Source of the DNA: an uncultured Bacteroidales bacterium
Lineage (GTDB): Bacteria; Bacteroidota; Bacteroidia; Bacteroidales; UBA3824
DNA: 64,000 bases
NCBI GenBank assembly: GCA_946624925.1
Contig: CAMOSO010000040.1
Coordinates: 1,404-65,403, forward strand
Reading direction: 5' to 3'
Position numbers and translations under genes: made by a program. Under the pieces are notes generated by a model. The model saw only the letters and a list, made by a program, of their open reading frames with translations. It was not told the DNA's origin and ran no database searches. Shown here one piece after another: positions 1 to 17,133 of this stretch. Every line of letters begins with the position of its first letter. The stretch's first letter is position 1.

Positions 1-3000
1 TCACCTGTCAACCAAACATTTGGCACAATCTTTCCTCTGATGCGTTTTCTGCGGTGTGCAGGAGTAAGGGTTTGGTCTTTTGATTGATGGTTTATCAGGA
101 TATTGTTTTCGATATATGGCACAATAGCCGACAAATCACCACCCAAACCGCATTTTCGGCGTTCCTGGTTCAATTGGTTTTCCCAATCAGAAGTTTGATA
201 GCCTTCTAATTTCTTGAAAAACAATTCAAGCATTTTGTCACGTTGTACCGCTGTTGGTATCAGAGTTAGAGTTGCGGCATCAATGGCATGATGTGAATGT
301 TTGTCTCTCGATTTCTTTTCATCTATCTGTATTCCAAGCATTTTCCTAAATGCAACGTTAACACCTGCTTTTTGCACTTCCACTTTGTTGAAAACGGTTT
401 TCAGATAGTGGTATGCGTATTTGGTAATAATGCGAGTGTCAACAAGTTGGCTGTTTCTGAATCCATCGGTAACTTCTTTCAGTTCAAAACGTTCCACCTT
501 GTTTTTCCAATAGTCGAGTTCCATCTGCCAAAGATGTTTCTGCCTGATGCAATCATCCTTGCGTTCTTTGGTCATCGCTTTTTTCGATTGCGATTTCCAA
601 AACTCAACATTGTCTTTGAGATGCTCCACCTTGTCTTTCCAAGGCTGAATCCTCGAAAGAATATCGTCATAATTGCTGAGTTGCGACGGTATTTGGTTCT
701 TTTTGATAGACCTATTGAAATGCGCTTCGCATATCGTCAGGTTTGCCAACGAATCGTCGAAGCATTTGCTTCGCGGTATTGTATGTTCGATGTCAAAGGC
801 GTTTTCGGCAAACAGATTTGTGATATTAATCGGTTTGCCTGTGTAAATACACAAACCGCCTTGTTCCATCCAAAGCCTGTATTTCGTAACGTCTTTTTTG
901 TAACGCTCGAATTTCTGTTTTTCTTTTTGATTTTCAGGTGTTTTCAATTGCTCCATTAAAAGCCTCATACGGTCTTTGTCCTCGTCAGAAACTTCTCGAT
1001 TGGGCAGAAATTCATTGATTATTTCAGCGAATTTCTTGTTTTCGTTTTCCCTTTCGCGTTGATATGTTTCTATTGCCCAACGCATGTTGGCATCGTTGAG
1101 GTCGCGTGCCGTTTCTACTACAATACGGGTATTTTCATCAATAATTGGATTGCCGTTTTCATCGTTGGTGGTCAGCAACTTATTTATCATATGGCGCAAC
1201 GAATGTAGTACACGCATTGCCATTGGATTTTTGAGAGCACCAATAACAGGACTTCCCAAAAGTTTCATCACTCTGCCATCTTCGATTGTTTGGTCTTTTG
1301 CGGGAGCATAAACTTCAATCATTGATGGATGATAGATTTTTTTCAACTGTTTTGGGTCGATAAAATCGTATTCCTTTTTGATGCACTCTGCCAACGCTTC
1401 GGCAAGTTTGGGCAGTTTGTAATAGTCGCGGTCTGATGAAGCAAAAAACTCTTGATAGAGTTTTTCTGTGGTGGCAATAATTTCGTTTCGTTCTTCTGAG
1501 GACTTGTTTTGCCAACTTTTTTCGCCGAAAGTTTTTTGTGCCATTGCAGACACGTCGTTTTTGTCGCTTTCCGACAAAACATAATCGGTGTTTTTACGTG
1601 CAAATTGCTCGTTTGGCTCTAACGATTTATAGTTGGCAATCAATGAGTTGACAATATAATAAATTGTCTTTTGCTTTCTGTTTACGTCAGTTGCATTTTG
1701 CAAAAGCGAAACAATTTTATTTTCGTTTTCTGCCCATTTCTCTTCTCCAAAAATTTCGGGGAGTTTTGCCATCAATGCCGAGTGAGAATATAACATTACT
1801 TTTTCAAGGAATCTGTTTATATTTCTTATTGCCTTCAAACTCAGCATTGCATATCCTTGTTTGATTGCGCCAAAAACTTTTACGAGTTGTTTGGTTTGTT
1901 CATTGTTGAAGTTCAATTTGTTTTTGGCAAATTCTTCCACGTATTCCACGTCATCAAACGAAAAACATACGTGCCATAAGTCGTATGCGTCATAGCAAGC
2001 GTGTTTTGTTTCGCCGTTCTTTTTCTGGAATGATGTTTCATATTTCCAAGACTGCCAATTATCGCCGAGTAGTTTTTTCAATCTTCCCGACACAGGACAG
2101 CCCGAAACACTTGTACGGTCTTTGTAGTTGATGGTTTTTGCCTTGTAATCAAGAGGTTTGCGGATTTCTTTTTCAATCCATTTCCTGATTTCTTCAAACT
2201 TAAAATCAGATTTCAAGAGCATAAACTTTTCATTGAAAAGTTTCTTTTTTTGCTCATTTGTCAATTCTTGTTGACAATCTTGACCAAATTTGATTGTATT
2301 GATAAAACACCACGCCCTGAATCTTTCAAAATCGGGATGGCTAATGGGGCATCTATCCTTGTCTGGTTCGAGGGTGCATTTGCCGACAAGTCCTTTTTGC
2401 GAGCGCAGAGGACGTTTGTAAAAAATCGTTCCTTCACTTTTTTTCTCGCTTACAAGGTGCTTGTAAAAGTCGCTTTCTGTATCAAGTTGTTTTTGAAATT
2501 CAAATATTTTTTTGATTTCATCTTTGTACTGCGAGCGAACGGCTTGGAAATCGCTATTGCGTACACGTACTCCATTAGTTATTAGATGATGAAAAGCCCA
2601 GCCTACGGTCGGTAATTTATTGACTTTCATATACTCGTCCAATTTGGCAGATTTGTCAATTTCCGATTTTTTCATCATTTCAGACACATCAACGTCCTCT
2701 TTTTCCACAACCTTGTCGTCGTCTTTATCTGATACGGTTTCGCCTTTGCTACTTTTGAAACCTCGACGTTGCGCTATATGATAAAGAGCGCGACCAAGTT
2801 TCATACGCTCTGTTTCATCTTCTAAATTAAATTGACGGTTCATCAATTCGTAGCGGAGTTCGTATGGATTTGTATTTTTGCCATCGCCAAAATCACAACG
2901 AACCCATTGTTCAAATTTTATGGCATTAATTGGATATTCTCGTTTTAAGCCGCTTTTGGTGTCATATTTTCTCCATTTGTCGAGGTCTTCAATCGAAAGC

Positions 3001-3263
3001 GGACAACAATTATTATTAATAAGGAGTTCCAATGTTGCCCAAAGTCTATATTTACGTGCTTGATACATTCTACGCACAGTTCTCTTTTTGGTTCGCGCTG
3101 TGGCATACGAAAATTCGCCCGACTTGTCTTTGCCAACGCCGGAAGGAAATATATTTGTACCCACTAATTCTATTTGCTCAGTGATTGGAACAGTGTTATC
3201 AAAATCCCTGACAGCCAATCCAATAGAATTTGTTCCTAAATCAAGACCTAAAATTTTTTCCAT
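1..3263 (-). CDS. cas9: Cas9 CRISPR endonuclease (type II, II-C-like), N-terminal ~1087 aa; the C-terminus lies left of the window
   Basis: Not in the ORF track because the frame is open to position 1. My translation from the ATG at 3263-3261 gives MEKILGLDLGTNSIGLAVRD (RuvC-I), RTKKRTVRRMYQARKYR (Arg-rich bridge helix), IVVETARDL (RuvC-II), QGGLCIYTG...FDIEHTIPRSKCFDDSLANLTICEAHFNRSIKKNQIP (HNH) and SHHAIDAATL (RuvC-III). These motifs share one frame (top codon coordinate mod 3 = 2 at 3263, 785 and 299). Confidence 0.93.
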   Translation of the reverse strand, partial: MEKILGLDLGTNSIGLAVRDFDNTVPITEQIELVGTNIFPSGVGKDKSGEFSYATARTKKRTVRRMYQARKYRLWATLELLINNNCCPLSIEDLDKWRKYDTKSGLKREYPINAIKFEQWVRCDFGDGKNTNPYELRYELMNRQFNLEDETERMKLGRALYHIAQRRGFKSSKGETVSDKDDDKVVEKEDVDVSEMMKKSEIDKSAKLDEYMKVNKLPTVGWAFHHLITNGVRVRNSDFQAVRSQYKDEIKKIFEFQKQLDTESDFYKHLVSEKKSEGTIFYKRPLRSQKGLVGKCTLEPDKDRCPISHPDFERFRAWCFINTIKFGQDCQQELTNEQKKKLFNEKFMLLKSDFKFEEIRKWIEKEIRKPLDYKAKTINYKDRTSVSGCPVSGRLKKLLGDNWQSWKYETSFQKKNGETKHACYDAYDLWHVCFSFDDVEYVEEFAKNKLNFNNEQTKQLVKVFGAIKQGYAMLSLKAIRNINRFLEKVMLYSHSALMAKLPEIFGEEKWAENENKIVSLLQNATDVNRKQKTIYYIVNSLIANYKSLEPNEQFARKNTDYVLSESDKNDVSAMAQKTFGEKSWQNKSSEERNEIIATTEKLYQEFFASSDRDYYKLPKLAEALAECIKKEYDFIDPKQLKKIYHPSMIEVYAPAKDQTIEDGRVMKLLGSPVIGALKNPMAMRVLHSLRHMINKLLTTNDENGNPIIDENTRIVVETARDLNDANMRWAIETYQRERENENKKFAEIINEFLPNREVSDEDKDRMRLLMEQLKTPENQKEKQKFERYKKDVTKYRLWMEQGGLCIYTGKPINITNLFAENAFDIEHTIPRSKCFDDSLANLTICEAHFNRSIKKNQIPSQLSNYDDILSRIQPWKDKVEHLKDNVEFWKSQSKKAMTKERKDDCIRQKHLWQMELDYWKNKVERFELKEVTDGFRNSQLVDTRIITKYAYHYLKTVFNKVEVQKAGVNVAFRKMLGIQIDEKKSRDKHSHHAIDAATLTLIPTAVQRDKMLELFFKKLEGYQTSDWENQLNQERRKCGLGGDLSAIVPYIENNILINHQSKDQTLTPAHRRKRIRGKIVPNVWLTG

Positions 3264-3269
3264 TTATTT

Positions 3270-3387
3270 TGTTTTTTTGTTGTTGGTTTCCAAAATATGA
3301 TTTATCTTTGCGCTTGAAAGACAAATCACAATAAGGCTATAAGCCGAAGAGTTCTTCGCCCCGCGTACTCCGTGGGGCATTTTTTTT
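3270..3387 (+). ncRNA. tracrRNA candidate (module 1), divergent from cas9; a short form may start near 3315
   Basis: Anti-repeat-like GGTTTCC...TTGAAAGACAAATCACAAT (about 3286-3332). It is followed by AAGG + GGCT-ATA-AGCC nexus-like hairpin, a GAAG-AGTT-CTTC hairpin, and a CCCCGCG-TACTC-CGTGGGG stem with a T8 tract ending at 3387. The reverse complement starts ATTGTGATTTG..CTTTCAA and ends GGAAAC, like the long Bacteroidota II-C repeats as I recall them. The 5' end is uncertain. Confidence 0.6.
3303..3310 (+). promoter_or_regulatory. -7 box TATCTTTG (TAnnTTTG) inside/upstream of tracr module 1
   Basis: Exact match to the Bacteroidota -7 consensus TAnnTTTG. It would start an RNA near 3315 at TTGAAAGACAAATCACAAT. 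Confidence 0.4.
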
Positions 3388-3392
3388 CAGCA

Positions 3393-3400
3393 CAAATCTA
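3393..3400 (-). promoter_or_regulatory. Candidate cas9 -7 box (TAGATTTG on the minus strand)
   Basis: This is the only CAAAnnTA on the plus strand between 3264 and 3400. It implies a cas9 TSS near 3387 and a leader antisense to tracr module 1. Confidence 0.3.
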
Positions 3401-3458
3401 ATAATATATTCTTTATTCGCAAAATTGTTTTTGCTTTTTTGCGAAATTTTTTTTTGTA

Positions 3459-3466
3459 TAAATTTG
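3459..3466 (+). promoter_or_regulatory. -7 box TAAATTTG for tracr-like module 2
   Basis: Exact TAnnTTTG match with a TTTG about 20 nt upstream (3437-3441 region). The predicted start is near 3472. Confidence 0.45.
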
Positions 3467-3470
3467 CCAC

Positions 3471-3551
3471 ATAAAATGAAAGCAATTCACAATAAGGATT
3501 ATTCCGTTGTGAAAACATTAGGTTGCCTCGTCCTTCAACGGGGCATTTTTT
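3471..3551 (+). ncRNA. Second tracrRNA-like RNA (module 2): short anti-repeat, nexus-like hairpin and terminator
   Basis: ATGAAAGCAATTCACAAT-AAGG-ATTATT-CCG (GGA/TCC hairpin), then CCGTTG..26 nt..CAACGG followed by GGCATTTTTT (T tract 3546-3551). It shares GAAAG..TCACAATAAGG..CCG..GGGGCATTTTTT with module 1. Its 3' end is antisense to the last codons of the RloB-like gene. Confidence 0.45.
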
Positions 3552-4266
3552 GTTTTCCCTCAAACAGCAAATGCATATCCGAATATGACACATTACATTC
3601 TTTCATTTTGGACACTTCGTCAAGTCGTTGCCCTTTGGATGCTTTGGCGGATTTTGTGGAGTTTTTGATTGCGTTGATGAGGTTGGTGTCGTCAGAGCCG
3701 CATAGTTTAGAGAAAAGGTTTGCAACCTTGTTTTTTTCGTATTCGGGGAGATGTTTTTTCAATATTTTTTCGATACCGCTTTCTGTTTCATAATATGCGG
3801 ACGTGTATGCAAAATGAAGCAACAACCAATATTCAAATGACGGCATATTGTTACAGAAAATTACAGATGGTTCGTCAGAATCGTCGGTGTTTTCAAATTG
3901 CTTTTTCTTGTCTATGAGTGCTTTATATTTGTTAAAGTTGCTTTCGTTGGTGCGTACAATGTCCAGGTCAAAAATACAAATAAATTTGCGGCGAGGGATG
4001 TTCAGGTACGAATTTATTTTGTCCAAATATGGTTCTTTTCTGCCGCCTTTCAGATTTATCGGTTTCGATTTTTCGTATTTGAGCCTAACTCTTGTTGAAT
4101 CTTCCAAATGAGAAAAAAGACTGTTCATATAAGCCTCCTCCGTGTCTCCTTCCACCAGCCAAGTGTATTTTGACGGATTGGGTTCCACAATTCCAGAGGA
4201 AACAGCATTGTTTTCCCTGCGTGAACGCTTTGATGTTTTGGGTTCTATTTTGGATTTTTTGCTCAT
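3535..4266 (-). CDS. RloB-like (Toprim-like) protein, partner of the upstream AAA ATPase
   Basis: 243 aa. RloB-family signature strings as I recall them: LVEGDTEEAYMNSLF (EGxTE), ICIFDLD, and CNNMPSFEYWLLLHF (compare SNPCFExWLLLHF). It lies 17 nt downstream of the ATPase gene on the same strand. Confidence 0.75.
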   Translation of the reverse strand: MSKKSKIEPKTSKRSRRENNAVSSGIVEPNPSKYTWLVEGDTEEAYMNSLFSHLEDSTRVRLKYEKSKPINLKGGRKEPYLDKINSYLNIPRRKFICIFDLDIVRTNESNFNKYKALIDKKKQFENTDDSDEPSVIFCNNMPSFEYWLLLHFAYTSAYYETESGIEKILKKHLPEYEKNKVANLFSKLCGSDDTNLINAIKNSTKSAKASKGQRLDEVSKMKECNVSYSDMHLLFEGKQKMPR

Positions 4267-4283
4267 AATTTATTGTCTTGTAA

Positions 4284-5492
4284 CTAATTATAATACTCAA
4301 TCTCTGCCACTGCGCCGAAACGGCCTTCGCGGTACGCTTTGTAAATAGATTTTATGTTTGTCAGGTTGAAGTCGGCGAGTGAAAACAATCGAGTGCTGCC
4401 GTCTTCTATTTTTTCGGCAAAACGTATTGAATCCTTGCGGACAAGGTTGTTGACCGTTTCCATCAATCCCGAATAGTGGGTTGTTATGATAAGTTGTGAA
4501 CGGCTGTTTTTTTGAGTTACAAAGTCGTAAATCAATTTTTCAAACAAGTCGGGATGTATGGAAGTCTCCAATTCGTCAGCGGCGAGAAAAGCGTTGTTTT
4601 TTACAAGGCGTTTCATAATATAATACAGAGCCACAAAACGTTTGGTGCCGTTTGATTGTTGCTGACCAATCAGATTGTAAGTGCGCGTTTTGCCGTCCAC
4701 TTTTACTTCTACGGCATATTCGTCCCTTATTTTTTCTTCGCCGTCGTTTTTTACAAGGCTGAAACAGATGTCGCCGATGTTGTCGAAACCGTCAAGTTTT
4801 AGGTCGTCAATAAACTGTCTGTCAATATTTTCTGCACCTGAAACAAAATCGTTGGCTATTTTTGTGTAAACGTCTTTTTTGTCGGTGATTACGGGTAAAA
4901 AATTCTTGAAATACTCCAAAACGTTCTCAATTTCGATGATTTTTTCGGTGAGTTTTTCTGTGGAACTATTGTACGCCGCAAATAGCGACATATTTTTTCT
5001 GCACGTCCAGTCAAGTCCGTTTTTGACCTGTTGGTCTATTTCAAAGTTATATGTTATTGTAGTTTTGTCGCCTTTGGTTTTGCGTTCAAAAAACAATGTA
5101 TCCGCTACTTCCAGTTTTTCATAGACAACGTTTTGCGGATTCACGCGGAGGAAGTAACGGTTTTTTTTGTTGGAATTGTCATAGAAAATGATGTCAAATT
5201 TAGAATCACCCTTTGCGGTCTTGTCGTCGAGCAAAAATGGTTCTACGCCCGTAGCAACGGAATTGACATCGCGCAAAATGAAGTCGTGCAAAAAGAAGAA
5301 TATTTTGAGAAAGTTGGATTTGCCCGAGGCGTTTGCCCCATATAACGCTGCAAATCTCAACAATTTGACCCCTTTCGCCACTTCCACGACTTGGGTGTCT
5401 TCCGCGTAATTGTCGTCTTTGTCCGCCTCAAAACTGAATGTTGTCTTGTGCTTGAACGACAAAAAATTCTCAACGGTGATTTCCTGTATCAT
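4284..5492 (-). CDS. AAA_21/ABC-type ATPase (AbiLi/OLD-ATPase-like)
   Basis: Walker A YGANASGKSN, signature-like QSNGTKRF, Walker B/D-loop LAADELETSIHP, and H-loop QLIITTH. The track start at 5519 is a TTG. The ATG at 5492 (MIQEITVENFLSFK, the typical N-terminus of this family) is the more likely start. Confidence 0.85.
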   Translation of the reverse strand: MIQEITVENFLSFKHKTTFSFEADKDDNYAEDTQVVEVAKGVKLLRFAALYGANASGKSNFLKIFFFLHDFILRDVNSVATGVEPFLLDDKTAKGDSKFDIIFYDNSNKKNRYFLRVNPQNVVYEKLEVADTLFFERKTKGDKTTITYNFEIDQQVKNGLDWTCRKNMSLFAAYNSSTEKLTEKIIEIENVLEYFKNFLPVITDKKDVYTKIANDFVSGAENIDRQFIDDLKLDGFDNIGDICFSLVKNDGEEKIRDEYAVEVKVDGKTRTYNLIGQQQSNGTKRFVALYYIMKRLVKNNAFLAADELETSIHPDLFEKLIYDFVTQKNSRSQLIITTHYSGLMETVNNLVRKDSIRFAEKIEDGSTRLFSLADFNLTNIKSIYKAYREGRFGAVAEIEYYN

Positions 5493-5575
5493 TTTATTAT
5501 GAATTGGTTTGTGGCGCAAATATAATGATTATTTTGTTATAATCCTCACAAATATCCTCTGCCACAAAAAAAATT

Positions 5576-7492
5576 TTATATCTTCGTCATTACCAACCCA
5601 TCCTCTTCTCTATTGTAAAATTCCTCCATTTTGGCGTTGAATTGTTGCCTTGGCAGCGATGACCAGGAGCGGAAGTCGGAGGTGATGTCGGTGAAGCGGA
5701 TGTTGACTTTGCGTTTTGGGACAAAGAGGAAGCGGAGCATCGCAAGGAATTTGAGACTTTTTACGAGCATTGGCACCATTGGGGCGGTGCGGGTGCGGCC
5801 GTAGTTTGACCAGCGGCTGCCCCATAGACCGTGGATTTCGATTGCTACAACGCGGGTGTGGTCGGGAAGAATTTTTGAGGCGTTGTATGCCATGCGGCGG
5901 TTGCCGATGGTCTCCTTGCCGTCGAGTGTGATGTGTCCGGAGGGGTAGAAAAGGATGTTTGCGCCGTTTTCAAGTTGCGTCTGTACAATGCCGTCGAGTT
6001 TTTGAACTTGCTCCACGCCTTCACGTCCGCCACGGCGCAGGTCGGGCACTTGAACGGCGTCAAAAAGGTTAAGGACGTGACCCATGAATTTGTTTTTCCA
6101 AAATCTTGCGTCCACCATCGGTTGGAGTTTGTAGTCGTAGAGATCTGCAAACAAAATCAGCGGGTCAATCAATGCGCGGTGCATCGGGAGGATGAGGAGA
6201 TTTTGACCGGCGGGCACGTCGAGCACTTCCTTGTTTTCCATCTTCACGTCATAATGAAGGTGGATAATTTTGCTCACGCGATAGCACAGCGAGCCTTTGT
6301 AATTGAACATGAAATATATCGTCCATGCCGCCAACAAAATGCCGTCGAATAGGAACACGTATGTCGATGACAATAAGTTGGCAATCAATACATTAGTTGC
6401 AGAAGCCGCCAATATGAATATGAACGAAACGAGATTGAAATATGCAAGAATGATGTTGAGTTCCGATGTGGCGACACGCTTTTGGATTTCGGCGTCGAGG
6501 GGGATTTTGAAGATGCCCACAGTGATTGCAATGATGGTCATGAAAATTCCAAAATACAATCCCTTGTAGTCGCCCATTTCGTTGAATGGAAGTATGGAAA
6601 CTATTATCATCAACACACCTGCCAAAACTCCAAGACGCGGTACAGTGCCGAGCATATAGCGGCTGTGATTGAGTTTGCCGCCGAGGAGACAGCCGACAGT
6701 AATGCCAATCGCCATTGATGCAAGGAGATAGCCGGTCTGGGTGTTTGACATGCCGAGGTGTTCTTCGCAGTGTGTTATCAGAATCATCTGCACCGATGCG
6801 CAAAACCACCAGAACAATGACAGCAACATTATTACGTGTCCGAGGCCTTTGTATTTGCGGGAAATTGCGGCGGATTCACGCAGGAATTTTATTGGATTTG
6901 CCGACGATTCTTCCGCCGTTTTGTTTTCTTCGGTCCTGATTGTCAGGCTGCTGAGCAAACCCAACGCAGCAATGGAAAACAAGACTATGGCGTAGAGCGT
7001 GAGAGAATGATGATCCGACATTACCGAGCCGACAAATGTGCCTACCAATGTGCCGAGGAATGCAAATGCCTCCATGCCTCCCATGCCCATTGAGATGCCT
7101 TCTTCGCCGCCGATGTCCTTGATGAGTCCGTATTTCGCGGGGGAGTAGAGCGCGCTCTGCAATCCCATCAAAAGCGATGCCGTGAGCGCAATCCAGATGT
7201 TTTCAAAATAGAATCCAAGCACCGCGACGAGCATTATCGGCAATTCACAAATTTTGGCGACCCTGATGATTTGTTGCTTGCGCCAGAAGTGTGGCAACTT
7301 GCCTGCCAATGGAGACAGGAACACGTATGGCATTACCATTGCAGCCGCCATGATGCTTACAACAAGTGTGCTGTACTCTTTTGCAACCCATGTCGCCGCC
7401 ACAAAACATATCAACGCTTTGAGGACATTGTCGTTCATAACGCCGAATATGTTGGTGATATATAGCGATAAAAACTGTCGGATGTTTTTCAT
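5576..7492 (-). CDS. MFS transporter fused to a PlsC-type acyltransferase (LplT/lysophospholipid acyltransferase-like)
   Basis: 638 aa. The N-terminal ~400 aa is multi-TM and MFS-like. The C-terminal domain carries an HX4D motif (PMHRALIDP) and YPSGHIT. Confidence 0.75.
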   Translation of the reverse strand: MKNIRQFLSLYITNIFGVMNDNVLKALICFVAATWVAKEYSTLVVSIMAAAMVMPYVFLSPLAGKLPHFWRKQQIIRVAKICELPIMLVAVLGFYFENIWIALTASLLMGLQSALYSPAKYGLIKDIGGEEGISMGMGGMEAFAFLGTLVGTFVGSVMSDHHSLTLYAIVLFSIAALGLLSSLTIRTEENKTAEESSANPIKFLRESAAISRKYKGLGHVIMLLSLFWWFCASVQMILITHCEEHLGMSNTQTGYLLASMAIGITVGCLLGGKLNHSRYMLGTVPRLGVLAGVLMIIVSILPFNEMGDYKGLYFGIFMTIIAITVGIFKIPLDAEIQKRVATSELNIILAYFNLVSFIFILAASATNVLIANLLSSTYVFLFDGILLAAWTIYFMFNYKGSLCYRVSKIIHLHYDVKMENKEVLDVPAGQNLLILPMHRALIDPLILFADLYDYKLQPMVDARFWKNKFMGHVLNLFDAVQVPDLRRGGREGVEQVQKLDGIVQTQLENGANILFYPSGHITLDGKETIGNRRMAYNASKILPDHTRVVAIEIHGLWGSRWSNYGRTRTAPMVPMLVKSLKFLAMLRFLFVPKRKVNIRFTDITSDFRSWSSLPRQQFNAKMEEFYNREEDGLVMTKI

Positions 7493-7624: not shown

Positions 7625-10600
7625 AAATCCATTGCGTCCTTGCCGTGGCAGTTTTTGTATTTCTTGCCGCTGCCGCATGGACATGGATCGTTGCGCCCCG
7701 GTTTTTTCTCGGCGCGTACCGGCTGAACTCTTTGGATGGGTTCGCGGCGGGGCTGCTGCTGTTGCTGCTGCTTGGGCGAGTCGTTGATGGTATTTGCCTG
7801 CTCCTGCGAAGCCTTCATCTTTTCCTGTTCGCGGCGGATAGCCTGTTCGCGGGCGCGTGCCTGGGCTTGCGCTTGTGCCTGAGCCATTGCGAGTTGCTCC
7901 GGGTCGGGCATAGGTATCTGTGCGCGCATCAAGGTTGATATTACCGACTTGTTGTTTTTGTCGAGCATACGTCCAAAGAGTCCGTTGGATTCTATCTTGA
8001 AGATTACGAGCGGGTCTTTCTGTTCGTAACGAGCGTCCTGTACCGACTGCTTGAGGTCGTCGAGGTCGCGGAGGTGCTGCTTCCAGTTGTCGTCGATGGT
8101 TACGAGCATTATTATCTTCTGGAACGCCTTTGTAATCTCGCGGCAGTCCGATTCGTAGGCTTTTTGGAGGTTGACGCGGATTTGGAATATGCGCCTGCCG
8201 TCGGAGATAGGCACTATGATGTATTCAAACCTATCTTTCTGCGTCTCATAGACGTTTTGGATGATTGGGGCGGCTTTTTCGCGGATGAGTTTCATCTTCT
8301 CCGCCATGCGTTCGAATGCGGTGTTGAAGAGTTTGTCGCCGATGGCAGAATCGTCGAGTTGCAGGAACTCTTGTTCTGTTATCGGGCAGCTGATGCCCAA
8401 GCTCTTTGCCACTTCAAAACAGAATGTGGTGTACTCGTCGTTGCGTCCGTACTTGACGAGATTGTCGCAGGCGTCGTTGAGCATGTTGTTAATCTCGATG
8501 TCGAGGCCGTTGCCATACAATGCGTTGCGTCGTTGACGGTATATTACCTCGCGCTGCTTGTTCATTACGTCGTCGTATTCGAGCAGGCGTTTGCGGATGC
8601 CGAAGTTGTTTTCCTCCACCTTCTTCTGGGCGCGTTCGATGGATTTGGTTACAATCTTGTGCTGGATTACTTCGCCTTCCTCTATGCCCATACGGTCCAT
8701 GAGCGCGGCAATCCTATCGCTGCCAAATAGACGCATCAAATTGTCTTCCAACGATACGTAGAATTGCGAGCTGCCTGGGTCGCCCTGACGTCCGGCACGT
8801 CCGCGCAACTGACGATCGACGCGGCGGCTTTCGTGGCGTTCTGTACCGATGATGGCAAGACCGCCGGCGGCTTTCACTTCGTCGCTCAGCTTGATGTCTG
8901 TACCACGACCCGCCATATTGGTTGCGATGGTGATAGTACCGCTCTGACCTGCCTGAGCCACGATTTCTGCCTCGCGTGCGTGGTATTTGGCGTTGAGGAC
9001 GTTGTGCTGGAGCTTGCGCATCTTGAGCATCTGGCTCAATAGTTCTGAAATTTCCACCGATGTCGTACCCACCAAAACCGGGCGGCCGGCGTCGTGGAGT
9101 CTCTGGATTTCGTCGATTACGGCTTTGTATTTTTCGCGTACTGTCTTATATACGAGGTCTTCCTTGTCGTCGCGTATTACGGGGCGGTTTGTCGGGATTA
9201 CGCAAACGTCGAGTTTGTAAATCTCCCAAAATTCGCCCGCCTCCGTCTCCGCCGTACCGGTCATGCCGGCGAGCTTTTCGTACATGCGGAAGTAGTTTTG
9301 GAGGGTGATTGTGGCAAATGTCTGTGTTGCCGCCTCCACCTTGACGCTTTCCTTGGCTTCGATGGCTTGGTGCAGACCGTCGGAATAGCGGCGACCTTCG
9401 AGGATACGGCCAGTGCCTTCGTCCACGATTTTCACCTTGTTGTCCATAACAACGTATTCCTGGTCGCGCTCAAACATCGTGTAGGCTTTAAGCAACTGAT
9501 TGATAGTGTGTACGCGTTCCGATTTGATTGCAAAATCGCTTTCCACCTTGTCGCGGCGTTCCATTTTTTCCTCCTCGCTGAGGTTAGAATGTTCTATCTC
9601 TGCGATTGCGCTGCCTACATCTGGCAACACGAAAAATTGCGGGTCGTCCGAATTGCCTGTAATCAAGTCGATGCCTTTTTCGGTGAGATCTACAGATTTT
9701 TGTTTTTCCTCAATCACGAAGAAAAGTTCGTCGGTGATTTCGGGCATACGTTTGTTGTTTTCAGCCATGTAGATGGCCTCGGTGTTTTGGAGCAGCACCT
9801 TGTTGCCTTCCTGGCTGAGGAATTTGGTGAGGGCGTTGTTTTTTGGGAGAGCCTTCCAAGCCTTGAGGAGAGCGATGCCGCCTTTGTCGCGGTCGCCGTT
9901 TTTGATATAATTTTTGGCGTCGATGAGTAGGCGGTTGAACAATGCCTTCTGTTCCTCTACGAGTTTTACCACCTTGGGTTTGAGTTCGAGGAACATCTGG
10001 ATGTCGTTGCCGGCGTTTGGCACGGGTCCGCTAATAATAAGAGGTGTGCGGGCGTCGTCGATCAATACGGAGTCCACCTCATCGACGATTGCAAATACGT
10101 GCTTGCGCTGCACGAGTTCTTCGGGCGTGGAGCACATGTTGTCGCGGAGGTAGTCGAAGCCAAACTCGTTGTTGGTACCAAAAGTAATGTCTGAATAATA
10201 AGCCTTGCGTCTTGCGGCGGAGTTGGGCTGATGCTTGTCGATGCAATCCACGGTGAGACCCTGGAACATGTACAACATACCCATCCATTCGCTATCACGT
10301 TTTGCCAAGTAGTCATTGACGGTAACTACGTGTACGCCCCTGCCTGTCAATGCGTTGAGGAATACCGGGAGGGTGGCGACGAGGGTCTTGCCTTCGCCTG
10401 TTGCCATCTCGGCTATCTTGCCTTGATGGAGAGCGATACCGCCTAGGAGCTGCACGTCGTAATGTACCATATTCCATGTCAACATGTTGCCGCCAGCCAT
10501 CCAAGTGTTGGAGTAGATGGCCTTGTCGCCGTTGATGGTTATGTTTTCAAAACGGGTGGCGAGTTCGCGGTCCATGTCGGAGGCTGTTACTTCCACGGTT

Positions 10601-15927: not shown

Positions 15928-17133
15928 ATGCAACAGTCTGATATAATGCCTCTTGTAAATGTTTACCGCAGAAAGGTAGATGATGTCAATATGGATTTCA
16001 AGCGTTACTTATTCGACGAAATCGATTGGGAAGACCGTCTTATCGGCATCATGGGCGCAAGAGGCGTCGGAAAAACAACCTTGATTCTGCAATACATCAA
16101 GGAAAAAGTCAAAGACAAAAGCAAGGCTCTATGGGTCTCGCTAGACAATCTGTGGTTCAAGACCAACAGCCTGCTCGACCTTGTGGAATACCTTTACACG
16201 CAGGGCGTCACTCATTTGTTTTTTGACGAGGTACACAAGTTTCCGGACTGGGCGTTGTACTTAAAAAACTTTTACGACAACTATCCCGACCTCAAGATAG
16301 TCTATACGGGTTCGTCGATGCTCAAGATAGACAATTCGAAAGCCGACCTTTCGCGCCGGCAGATAATCTACACCCTCGGCAACCTGTCGTTCAGGGAATA
16401 CCTTGAGTTCAACAAGATACTGAAATTAGACGCAGTATCGCTTCCCGAACTGCTTAAAAGACATGTGGACATAGCATCAGAGATCGTCCCTAAAATAAAG
16501 GTGTTGAAATATTTTGGCGACTATCTCCAAAGAGGATGCTACCCATTTTCGCGCGAGGTAAGACGCGGGTACGACGCACGGCTCAGCACCGTCGTGCAGC
16601 TCGTAATGGAAAGCGACATGCCGGCTTCAAACGACATATCGTACCAGACGGTGGAAAAAACCAAAAAACTGCTGATGCTCATAGTGAGCAACGTGCCATT
16701 TGAAGCCAACATCTCCAAGCTTGCCGAAGCGATAAGCTCCACCCGCGACAGCTGCCTCAAGATGCTCTACACGCTCGACAAGGGCAATATCATCTCCATA
16801 CTCAACAAGGACATGAAAAATTACAAGCACCTGGTCGCGCCAAGCAAGGTATATCTCTACAACACCAACCTGATGTATGCCCTCTCGGGAAAGATAGATA
16901 CCGGCAACATCCGCGAGACATTCTTCCTAAACCAGATGCAGTTGTTGTTTGATGTGCGATACCCCAAGCAGGGAGACTTCCTTGTGGACAACAAATACCT
17001 CTTTGAGGTAGGCGGACCAAACAAGACCTACGACCAGATAAAGAACATCCCTCAGAGCTATCTCGCCGTCGATGGCATAGAATATGGCTTCGGCAACAGG
17101 ATTCCGCTGTGGATGTTTGGAATTTTGTATTGA
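15928..17133 (+). CDS. AAA+ ATPase with a C-terminal DUF4143-type domain (COG1373-like)
   Basis: 401 aa with Walker A GARGVGKTT, Walker B LFFDEVH, and the size and architecture typical of this family. Confidence 0.75.
   Translation: MQQSDIMPLVNVYRRKVDDVNMDFKRYLFDEIDWEDRLIGIMGARGVGKTTLILQYIKEKVKDKSKALWVSLDNLWFKTNSLLDLVEYLYTQGVTHLFFDEVHKFPDWALYLKNFYDNYPDLKIVYTGSSMLKIDNSKADLSRRQIIYTLGNLSFREYLEFNKILKLDAVSLPELLKRHVDIASEIVPKIKVLKYFGDYLQRGCYPFSREVRRGYDARLSTVVQLVMESDMPASNDISYQTVEKTKKLLMLIVSNVPFEANISKLAEAISSTRDSCLKMLYTLDKGNIISILNKDMKNYKHLVAPSKVYLYNTNLMYALSGKIDTGNIRETFFLNQMQLLFDVRYPKQGDFLVDNKYLFEVGGPNKTYDQIKNIPQSYLAVDGIEYGFGNRIPLWMFGILY

Follow-up and report, generated by a model that had tools for sequence, protein, structure and literature searches.

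Does a Cas9 whose gene lies beside two different genes for trans-activating CRISPR RNA (tracrRNA) use both of them, and where might the second have come from? The question is raised by a 64-kb stretch of DNA from an uncultured Bacteroidales bacterium (the window; coordinates are positions in it unless another contig is named), in which two tracrRNA-like modules accompany cas9, the effector gene of a CRISPR system. In the present study this locus was compared with other loci, which carry L-numbers as labels. On this comparison, module 1 is shown to be the putative cognate tracrRNA of the resident Cas9, because its scaffold stands upstream of cas9 in ~70 loci and changes in the local repeat are matched in its anti-repeat. 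An earlier note on this stretch had described module 2 as a diverged second copy of module 1; the comparison shows it, as judged from sequence, to be a complete and nearly canonical gene of a different tracrRNA family. The reading that we favour, and regard as rather probable, is that module 2 is a heterologous tracrRNA gene, probably transcribed and able to pair with the CRISPR RNAs (crRNAs), which was left at the locus as a by-product of recombination.

Results

The resident cas9 occupies the minus strand at the left edge of the window (1..3263), where its first 1087 codons are read from the ATG at 3263 and the gene extends beyond the window start. The full-length gene was found at 11004-15170 of L001, the 238-kb parent contig of the window, which was reached through a neighbouring protein and of which 20.7 kb were read. 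The 1388-aa product reaches 386 bits against TIGR01865, where the cut-off is 100, and two motifs are read in it, LGLDLGTNSIG of RuvC-I and DIEHTIPRS of HNH. Its sequence places it in type II-C, in a Bacteroidales lineage named clade A here. The modules had been described as lying upstream of cas9, and this position stands with the refinement that both are on the plus strand, divergent from cas9, with their AAGG motifs 70 nt and 231 nt from its ATG; the distance from AAGG to AAGG is thus 161 nt, instead of the 166 nt given earlier. The array and cas1 and cas2 had been expected further to the left. The array is indeed there, just outside the window and directly after cas9 (L001 15368-16743, crRNA sense as the window plus strand), and consists of 18 repeats of 47 nt each that begin GTTGTGATTTGCTTTCA…. 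Neither cas1 nor cas2 was found in the 64-kb window or in the part of L001 that was read. The repeat is the one that the earlier note had foreseen from the modules, so the concern that the true repeat would be unrelated to them falls away.

Module 1 (3317..3387, plus strand) comprises an anti-repeat, a nexus, a small hairpin and a terminator. Its promoter box TATCTTTG (3303..3310, plus strand) is an exact TAnnTTTG of the Bacteroidota -7 type with a predicted transcription start at ~3317, and lies 22 nt before the AAGG, a distance that is among the modal ones of related loci (11/74). The anti-repeat (3317-3332), with one bulged A, is followed by the AAGG (3333-3336), which opens an AA-GG nexus hairpin (3333-3346). 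The sequence further contains a GGCT/AGCC hairpin (3335-3345), a GAAG/CTTC small hairpin (3346-3357) and the terminator (3358-3387), with the stem GCCCCGCG/CGTGGGGC at 3358-3378 and a run of eight T at 3380-3387. The 47-48 nt formerly quoted for the beginning of this module start at 3285, not 3286, and only ~16-20 nt of them (3313/3317-3332) are anti-repeat, the rest being promoter with no match to the repeat. An anti-repeat of the full 47 nt was consequently rejected, ~20 nt being complementary.

For the comparison, 74 loci with relatives of the window Cas9 (43-90% identity) were taken, and closer ones (86-93%) were added later. The scaffold of module 1, designated type 1 and containing AAGGCTATAAGCCG, lies divergently upstream of cas9 in ~70 related loci, the Cas9 proteins of which are 44-93% identical to that of the window. 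In the form …CACAATAAGGCTATAAGCCG… it occupies the same divergent position in essentially all loci with an intact upstream region, and the closer relatives (86-93% Cas9 identity) carry it likewise. Module 1 fits the definition of this type, i.e. …CACAA(T/C)AAGGCTATAAGCCG… directly upstream of, and divergent from, a clade-A cas9. Compensatory substitutions are observed in the type 1 terminator stem among related loci; the nexus stems are invariant and provide no covariation information. The anti-repeat changes together with the local repeat: GTGATTTG pairs with CAAATCAC in the window and in L216, GTGAATTG with CAATTCAC in L220, and GGGAA with UUCUC in L055. Module 1 pairs with repeat nt 1-15 with one A bulged, and this bulge is conserved in every type 1 duplex and absent from the duplex of module 2. 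With repeats A-C, co-folding of module 1 brings a gain in free energy (ddG) of -13.5 to -14.2 kcal/mol; the range is -9.1 to -14.2 kcal/mol over the repeat variants, of which the array has four (A in eight repeats, B in five, C in four and D in one).

Module 2 (3473..3551, plus strand) is a tracrRNA of type 2, the family that is cognate to a second group of Cas9 proteins, named clade B here, and comprises an anti-repeat, a core and a terminator. Its promoter box TAAATTTG (3459..3466, plus strand) is again an exact TAnnTTTG, 27 nt before the AAGG, with a predicted transcription start at ~3473. The anti-repeat of 21 nt (3473-3493) is followed by the AAGG (3494-3497), a short GGA/TCC hairpin (3496-3505), the invariant 26-nt core AAGGATTATTCCGTTGTGAAAACATT (3494-3519) and the terminator (3525-3551), with its stem at 3525-3544 and a run of six T at 3546-3551. 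The long-range pairing CCGTTG(26 nt)CAACGG that had been proposed for this module is not conserved in relatives and was rejected; the conserved structure is the short terminator hairpin. Within the core, GTTGTGAA (3506-3513) reproduces the repeat's 5' end. This 8-mer, GUUGUGAA, is present in all type 2 loci and pairs with the 3' part of the module's own anti-repeat, so that the free type 2 RNA is predicted to fold back into a self-hairpin, which would have to open before crRNA binding. With the anti-repeat usual in clade A, UUUUCACAAU, the fit of the 8-mer is better still (10 bp).

Both modules pair with the array repeat when the anti-repeats are aligned and the duplexes scored, as the earlier note had suggested doing. 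The anti-repeat of module 2 matches repeat variant D at 21/21 positions and variant B at 20/21. Against 17 of the 18 repeats it leaves a U-U mismatch at position 8, a change from AATT to AAAT in most repeats that module 1 has tracked and module 2 has not. The ddG of module 2 is -12.2 to -16.0 kcal/mol with repeats A-C and -18.0 kcal/mol with D, and this modelling indicates that module 2 can pair with the crRNA. In predicted folds of each RNA alone and co-folded with the repeat, an AA junction, a nexus-like hairpin, one or more 3' hairpins and a terminator were obtained for both modules, and shuffled sequence folds less well than either (z-scores of -3.3 to -4.5), in line with the structures first proposed for them. 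The two exact TAnnTTTG boxes, one for each module, had also been read correctly (3303-3310 and 3459-3466); each scaffold is seen again in dozens to hundreds of further loci, and the boxes stand at family-typical spacing with a terminator behind each module. On this sequence evidence module 2 is probably transcribed.

A comparison with covariance models had also been suggested. A scan of the whole window at the Rfam gathering thresholds gave no match. Below the threshold, the Rfam tracrRNA model RF02348 (gathering score 70) aligned with module 2 at 25.8 bits (E = 0.075; 3454-3551, model positions 1-92) and did not match module 1, which says no more than that neither scaffold is within reach of the curated model. 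When the window was scanned for repeat-like patterns, the sole match was module 2 itself.

The family to which module 2 belongs is large. Three features define type 2, namely the invariant core AAGGATTATTCCGTTGTGAAAACAT, a terminator and, 26-29 nt upstream, a TAnnTTTG box. In module 2 the core is exact and the spacing is 27 nt, and a profile of the family matches it with E = 5.5e-15. Its core was observed in at least 120 metagenome loci and in 17 contigs of a viral collection. Among the 120 matches listed, 71 have the exact box 26-29 nt upstream, most often at 27 nt (36/120). In the metagenome loci (at least 120), type 2 is nearly always the sole tracrRNA-like element, and in 90 of the 109 listed loci with enough flank its core lies a median of 114 nt from the start of a divergent clade-B cas9. 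Clade-B Cas9 proteins are 22-33% identical to the window Cas9. The Cas9 tree has a deep split into two clades, of which A always has type 1, sometimes with type 2 in addition, and B has type 2 only. The locus plan and the 47-nt repeat family, GTTGTG…, are common to both clades. To a clade-B copy, module 2 shows 96.6% identity over 58 nt; when the promoter region is included, its identity to clade-B genes is 89% over 107-118 nt. This identity argues that module 2 is not a locally duplicated copy. No cognate clade-B cas9 lies next to it, the sole cas9 in the window and in the part of L001 read being that of clade A.

The presence of type 2 material beside a clade-A cas9 is not restricted to the window. 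The core was found in 13 of 74 clade-A loci, mostly past module 1 and on the same strand, and at least 19 of 70 have type 2 material on the strand of module 1 and no more than ~230 nt beyond it. The earlier note had suggested checking whether related genomes keep both modules: module 1 was seen in ~70 loci, and type 2 is missing from close relatives (those with 93%, 90%, 86% and 78% Cas9 identity). In profile and BLAST searches the clade-A copies ranged from complete to 5'-truncated. Truncated remnants follow the module 1 terminator directly in L008, L046, L015, L043, L056, L030 and L021; copies in L010, L014 and L028 have no anti-repeat; and in L046, L015, L008, L010 and L014 pieces (…CCGTTGTGAAAACAT plus terminator) are fused straight onto the type 1 terminator, where read-through would yield a chimeric tracrRNA with a second terminator. 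The exact promoter box is kept in 2 of 13 clade-A type 2 copies, as against 90 of the 120 listed in clade-B loci. In L011 (~10440-10530) and L027 (~16890-16980) the type 2 scaffold is found where the array ends on the side away from cas9, with the last repeat acting as the type 2 anti-repeat (30-nt match); antisense transcription leaving the array would yield a tracrRNA there. Bidirectional transcription of a Bacteroides fragilis II-C array has been reported (PMC4911918). Among the loci compared, no clade-A cas9 was accompanied by type 2 alone, and among 127 distinct type 2 loci no clade-B locus with both types was seen; type 1 occurs among these 127 only in L110, which has a clade-A Cas9, and in L132, where the sequence examined has no cas9.

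How could the scaffold of one clade reach the loci of the other? The Cas1 tree (Cas1 genes of L004-L214) departs from the Cas9 A/B split: the Cas1 proteins of the two clades are intermixed, and those of L029, L069 and L020 nest among clade-B Cas1. This discordance indicates that effector modules (cas9 and tracrRNA) and adaptation modules (cas1, cas2 and the array) may often have been exchanged in Bacteroidota II-C systems.

A further indication comes from the closest relative, L215, which has 93% Cas9 identity and the same major facilitator superfamily (MFS) neighbour as the window. The alignment of L215 with the window covers 3237-3454 and 5565-5871 and shows, at the junction, 13 nt of A/T-rich overlap (microhomology), so that a 2.1-kb block of the window (3455..5564) is missing from it. 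The block includes the promoter and gene of module 2 together with a pair of AbiL-like genes. This pattern fits a recent arrival of module 2 together with the AbiL-like cassette, and parsimony on the close relatives likewise favours a recent gain.

Discussion

Herein, we propose the following explanation for the two modules. First, module 1 would be the working tracrRNA, with a Bacteroidota promoter of its own that directs divergent transcription; ~16 nt of anti-repeat would pair with the first ~15 nt of each crRNA repeat, leaving the bulged A, and its nexus and hairpins would be bound by Cas9. Second, the family of module 2 normally stands at the same position beside a sister clade of Bacteroidota II-C Cas9. 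If the two clades share the 47-nt repeat family and swap adaptation modules, as appears to be the case, recombination between A and B loci could repeatedly deposit a foreign tracrRNA just past the resident one, where it would usually erode from the 5' end. Third, in this lineage the foreign gene would have come to lie at the edge of a 2.1-kb indel with an AbiL-like defence pair. Module 2 would be transcribed and would base-pair with the same crRNAs, it would be dispensable for the resident Cas9, and it would represent a by-product heading to decay with no role as a dedicated regulator. The by-product reading is favoured by the absence of the promoter box from 11 of 13 clade-A copies, by the series of 5'-truncations and by the absence of type 2 from close relatives.

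Several observations weigh against this explanation. In the window, module 2 is intact, with its promoter, 21-nt anti-repeat, core and terminator, and its ddG (-12.2 to -18.0 kcal/mol) is comparable to that of module 1 (-9.1 to -14.2 kcal/mol). L029 and L069 share ~97% identity in each of the two modules, whereas their spacers and flanks do not align, and the type 2 anti-repeats follow the difference between the local repeats; the pattern resembles that of purifying selection, in at least one of the lineages. The pattern would be explained equally well by separate acquisitions from near-identical donors, because the type 2 copies of L029 and L069 are 98-100% identical to clade-B genes. Finally, the 2.1-kb indel may represent either a gain in this lineage or a loss in L215.

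Some of these observations also support the strongest alternative, namely that module 2 is a functional second tracrRNA and that both RNAs load crRNAs into the resident Cas9. Module 2 could then serve repeats B and D, which it binds more strongly than module 1 does, or it could provide a bulge-free duplex for processing by RNase III. The nexus that it has in common with module 1 (AA-GG…CC-G) is intact along with its other parts, and the conserved island of L029 and L069, with an anti-repeat that follows the local repeat, also speaks for it. We nevertheless consider this alternative unlikely: no clade-A locus in the comparison carries type 2 alone, most clade-A copies are truncated or have lost the promoter, the anti-repeat or both, the closest relatives manage without module 2, the bulged A found in all type 1 duplexes is missing, and the Cas9 proteins of the two clades are only ~25% identical. 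The broader proposition that the resident Cas9 uses, or is modulated by, two structurally different tracrRNAs, one being an alternative scaffold or a competitor for crRNA, appears doubtful to us to the same degree. If true, it would amount to a natural two-tracrRNA circuit, and Cas9 proteins with ~25% identity could share a guide scaffold.

It is also conceivable, and in our judgement improbable, that module 2 serves a clade-B Cas9 which is encoded elsewhere in the genome and uses the same array. Type 2 is cognate to clade B, the repeat family is common to both clades, and the intermixing of Cas1 implies that both kinds of locus meet in the same gene pools. However, the 64-kb window and the 20.7 kb read of its parent contig yielded no second cas9, and the clade-B tracrRNA lies at a median of 114 nt from its own cas9, not at a distance from it.

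The scaRNA of Francisella novicida is repeat-like and pairs with tracrRNA, and tracr-L of Streptococcus pyogenes is a longer isoform of the same gene. Like these RNAs, module 2 is an extra small RNA gene beside cas9 that could alter the behaviour of Cas9; unlike scaRNA it is tracr-like, with a repeat-like segment of only 8 nt, and unlike tracr-L it is a separate gene with another scaffold. As a regulator or decoy, module 2 might titrate crRNAs, since it competes for the same repeat segment at similar energy, or GUUGUGAA might pair with the anti-repeat of module 1 in a circuit akin to that of scaRNA or tracr-L. The 8-mer does form a self-hairpin with its own anti-repeat, and 3' fragments containing it are kept directly after the module 1 terminator in several loci. 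On the other hand, the predicted duplex between the two modules is weak (-7.6 kcal/mol) and co-folding gains ~1 kcal/mol over the separate RNAs. Moreover, clade-B loci without module 1 have the 8-mer in invariant form, so that it would not have evolved for an interaction with module 1, and patchy occurrence and decay speak against a maintained circuit. A regulatory role is thus even less probable than service to a remote Cas9. Least tenable of all is the model implicit in the earlier note, a local tandem duplication of module 1 followed by divergence: the modules do share CACAAT-AAGG, the CCG after the nexus and the 3' end GGGGCATTTTTT, but this model was rejected as contradicted by the spread of the type 2 family, its core being invariant across at least 120 metagenome loci of which nearly all have no module 1, by the homology of module 2 to clade-B genes into the promoter, and by the relative with 93% Cas9 identity that has no module 2.

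The favoured reading, a heterologous tracrRNA left by recombination, can be related to several described systems. Bacteroidetes II-C systems with 47-48-nt repeats and their tracrRNAs have been reported (Chylinski 2013, PMC3737331; 'branch4' Bacteroides, Faure 2018, PMC6546382). The present locus resembles the canonical form in that the anti-repeat pairs with the GUUGUG… end of the repeat, with a G-U-closed lower stem, in the AA junction, the GG-based nexus and the terminator, and in the gene lying divergently upstream of cas9. Canonical descriptions give one tracrRNA per locus, whereas in the window two scaffold families lie beside a single cas9. Faure et al. described the junction from nexus to terminator as highly conserved (PMC6546382), and the invariant core of module 2 may correspond to this junction as described there.

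The double anti-repeat arrangement is not without precedent. In Prevotella intermedia, two anti-repeats (anti-DR-1 and anti-DR-2) were reported upstream of cas9, of which 'one or both' may belong to tracrRNA (PMC5608340). That system, compared here by its description, is likewise a Bacteroidales II-C system with a 47-nt repeat and two intergenic anti-repeat sites upstream of cas9; in the report, the anti-repeats are not assigned to different tracrRNA families and their origin is not explained. Dooley et al. considered a possible second tracrRNA near the array end or adjoining cas9 (bioRxiv 10.1101/2020.09.02.279885), and type 2 was seen in both positions, at the array end in L011 and L027 and beside cas9 in the window. 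The second tracrRNA was offered there to explain five discrepancies in prediction, not as a recurrent pairing of two families. The CoCas9 locus of Capnocytophaga ochracea has cas9 and an array with no cas1 or cas2 (PMC10521337) and resembles the window in these respects, as well as in its large II-C Cas9 and upstream tracrRNA, but a single tracrRNA is described for it and the window has two. For Riemerella anatipestifer, an anti-repeat like that of type 2, TGAAAGCAATTCACAA, has been reported upstream of cas9 (PMC5006608). A full-text literature search for either scaffold sequence returned nothing relevant. In the literature we found no description of the paired RNAs as scaffold families of two Cas9 clades, of this pairing recurring in roughly a quarter of clade-A loci, or of an erosion series among foreign tracrRNA copies.

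Taken together, the comparisons suggest that two deep Cas9 clades may share one repeat and adaptation module, with effectors swapped on top, each clade strictly keeping its own scaffold despite the swapping. A second anti-repeat beside a Bacteroidota cas9 need not be a regulator or a mistake; it may often be the tracrRNA of another Cas9 lineage, left by module exchange. Pipelines that take 'the best anti-repeat' could in such cases pick the wrong scaffold for guide design, and the locus provides a natural test case for the orthogonality of Cas9 and guide RNA.

Other features of the locus

The AbiL-like genes of the 2.1-kb block lie on the minus strand, convergent with module 2. The first, AbiLii/RloB-like (3535..4266; PF13707 RloB; PADLOC AbiLii E = 1.5e-16), has its stop codon (3535-3537) inside the terminator hairpin of module 2, and beside it, at higher coordinates, lies an AbiLi-like gene for an AAA_21 ATPase (4284..5519; PF13304; PADLOC AbiLi E = 7.5e-64). 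That AbiL genes generally travel with type 2 was considered and rejected, for they were found only in the window's own contigs and, as an unrelated occurrence, in L021. L215, which has no such block, retains the cas1 and cas2 that the window locus has not.

A candidate promoter of cas9 was noted between the modules, where the box TAGATTTG (3393..3400, minus strand) is an exact TAnnTTTG directed toward cas9. If it is the cas9 promoter, the 5' untranslated region of cas9 would be antisense to all of module 1. The assignment is tentative, because only 17 of 67 related loci have a comparable minus-strand box within 45 nt after module 1, and an antisense promoter at this place was rejected as a conserved feature.

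The four repeat variants of the array, of which D stands at the end distant from cas9, differ in the middle of the repeat, which suggests that the array is frozen or recombined. Every repeat, read in crRNA sense, contains an exact TAnnTTTG box (TACCTTTG, TAACTTTG or TAATTTTG) 16 nt before its 3' end, and the repeats of related loci show the same box as CAAAGATA on the opposite strand. These boxes look like the repeat-embedded crRNA promoters of II-C systems, possibly adapted to the Bacteroidota promoter type.

The 17 viral-collection contigs with a type 2 tracrRNA (L198-L214, from IMG/VR) carry it in many cases beside a clade-B cas9. In L220, the Cas9 of which is 86% identical to that of the window, two to three CRISPR repeats in crRNA sense lie upstream of cas9 and past module 1 (~590-800), after a TAACTTTG box, and make up an orphan mini-array on the side of cas9 where the tracrRNA lies.

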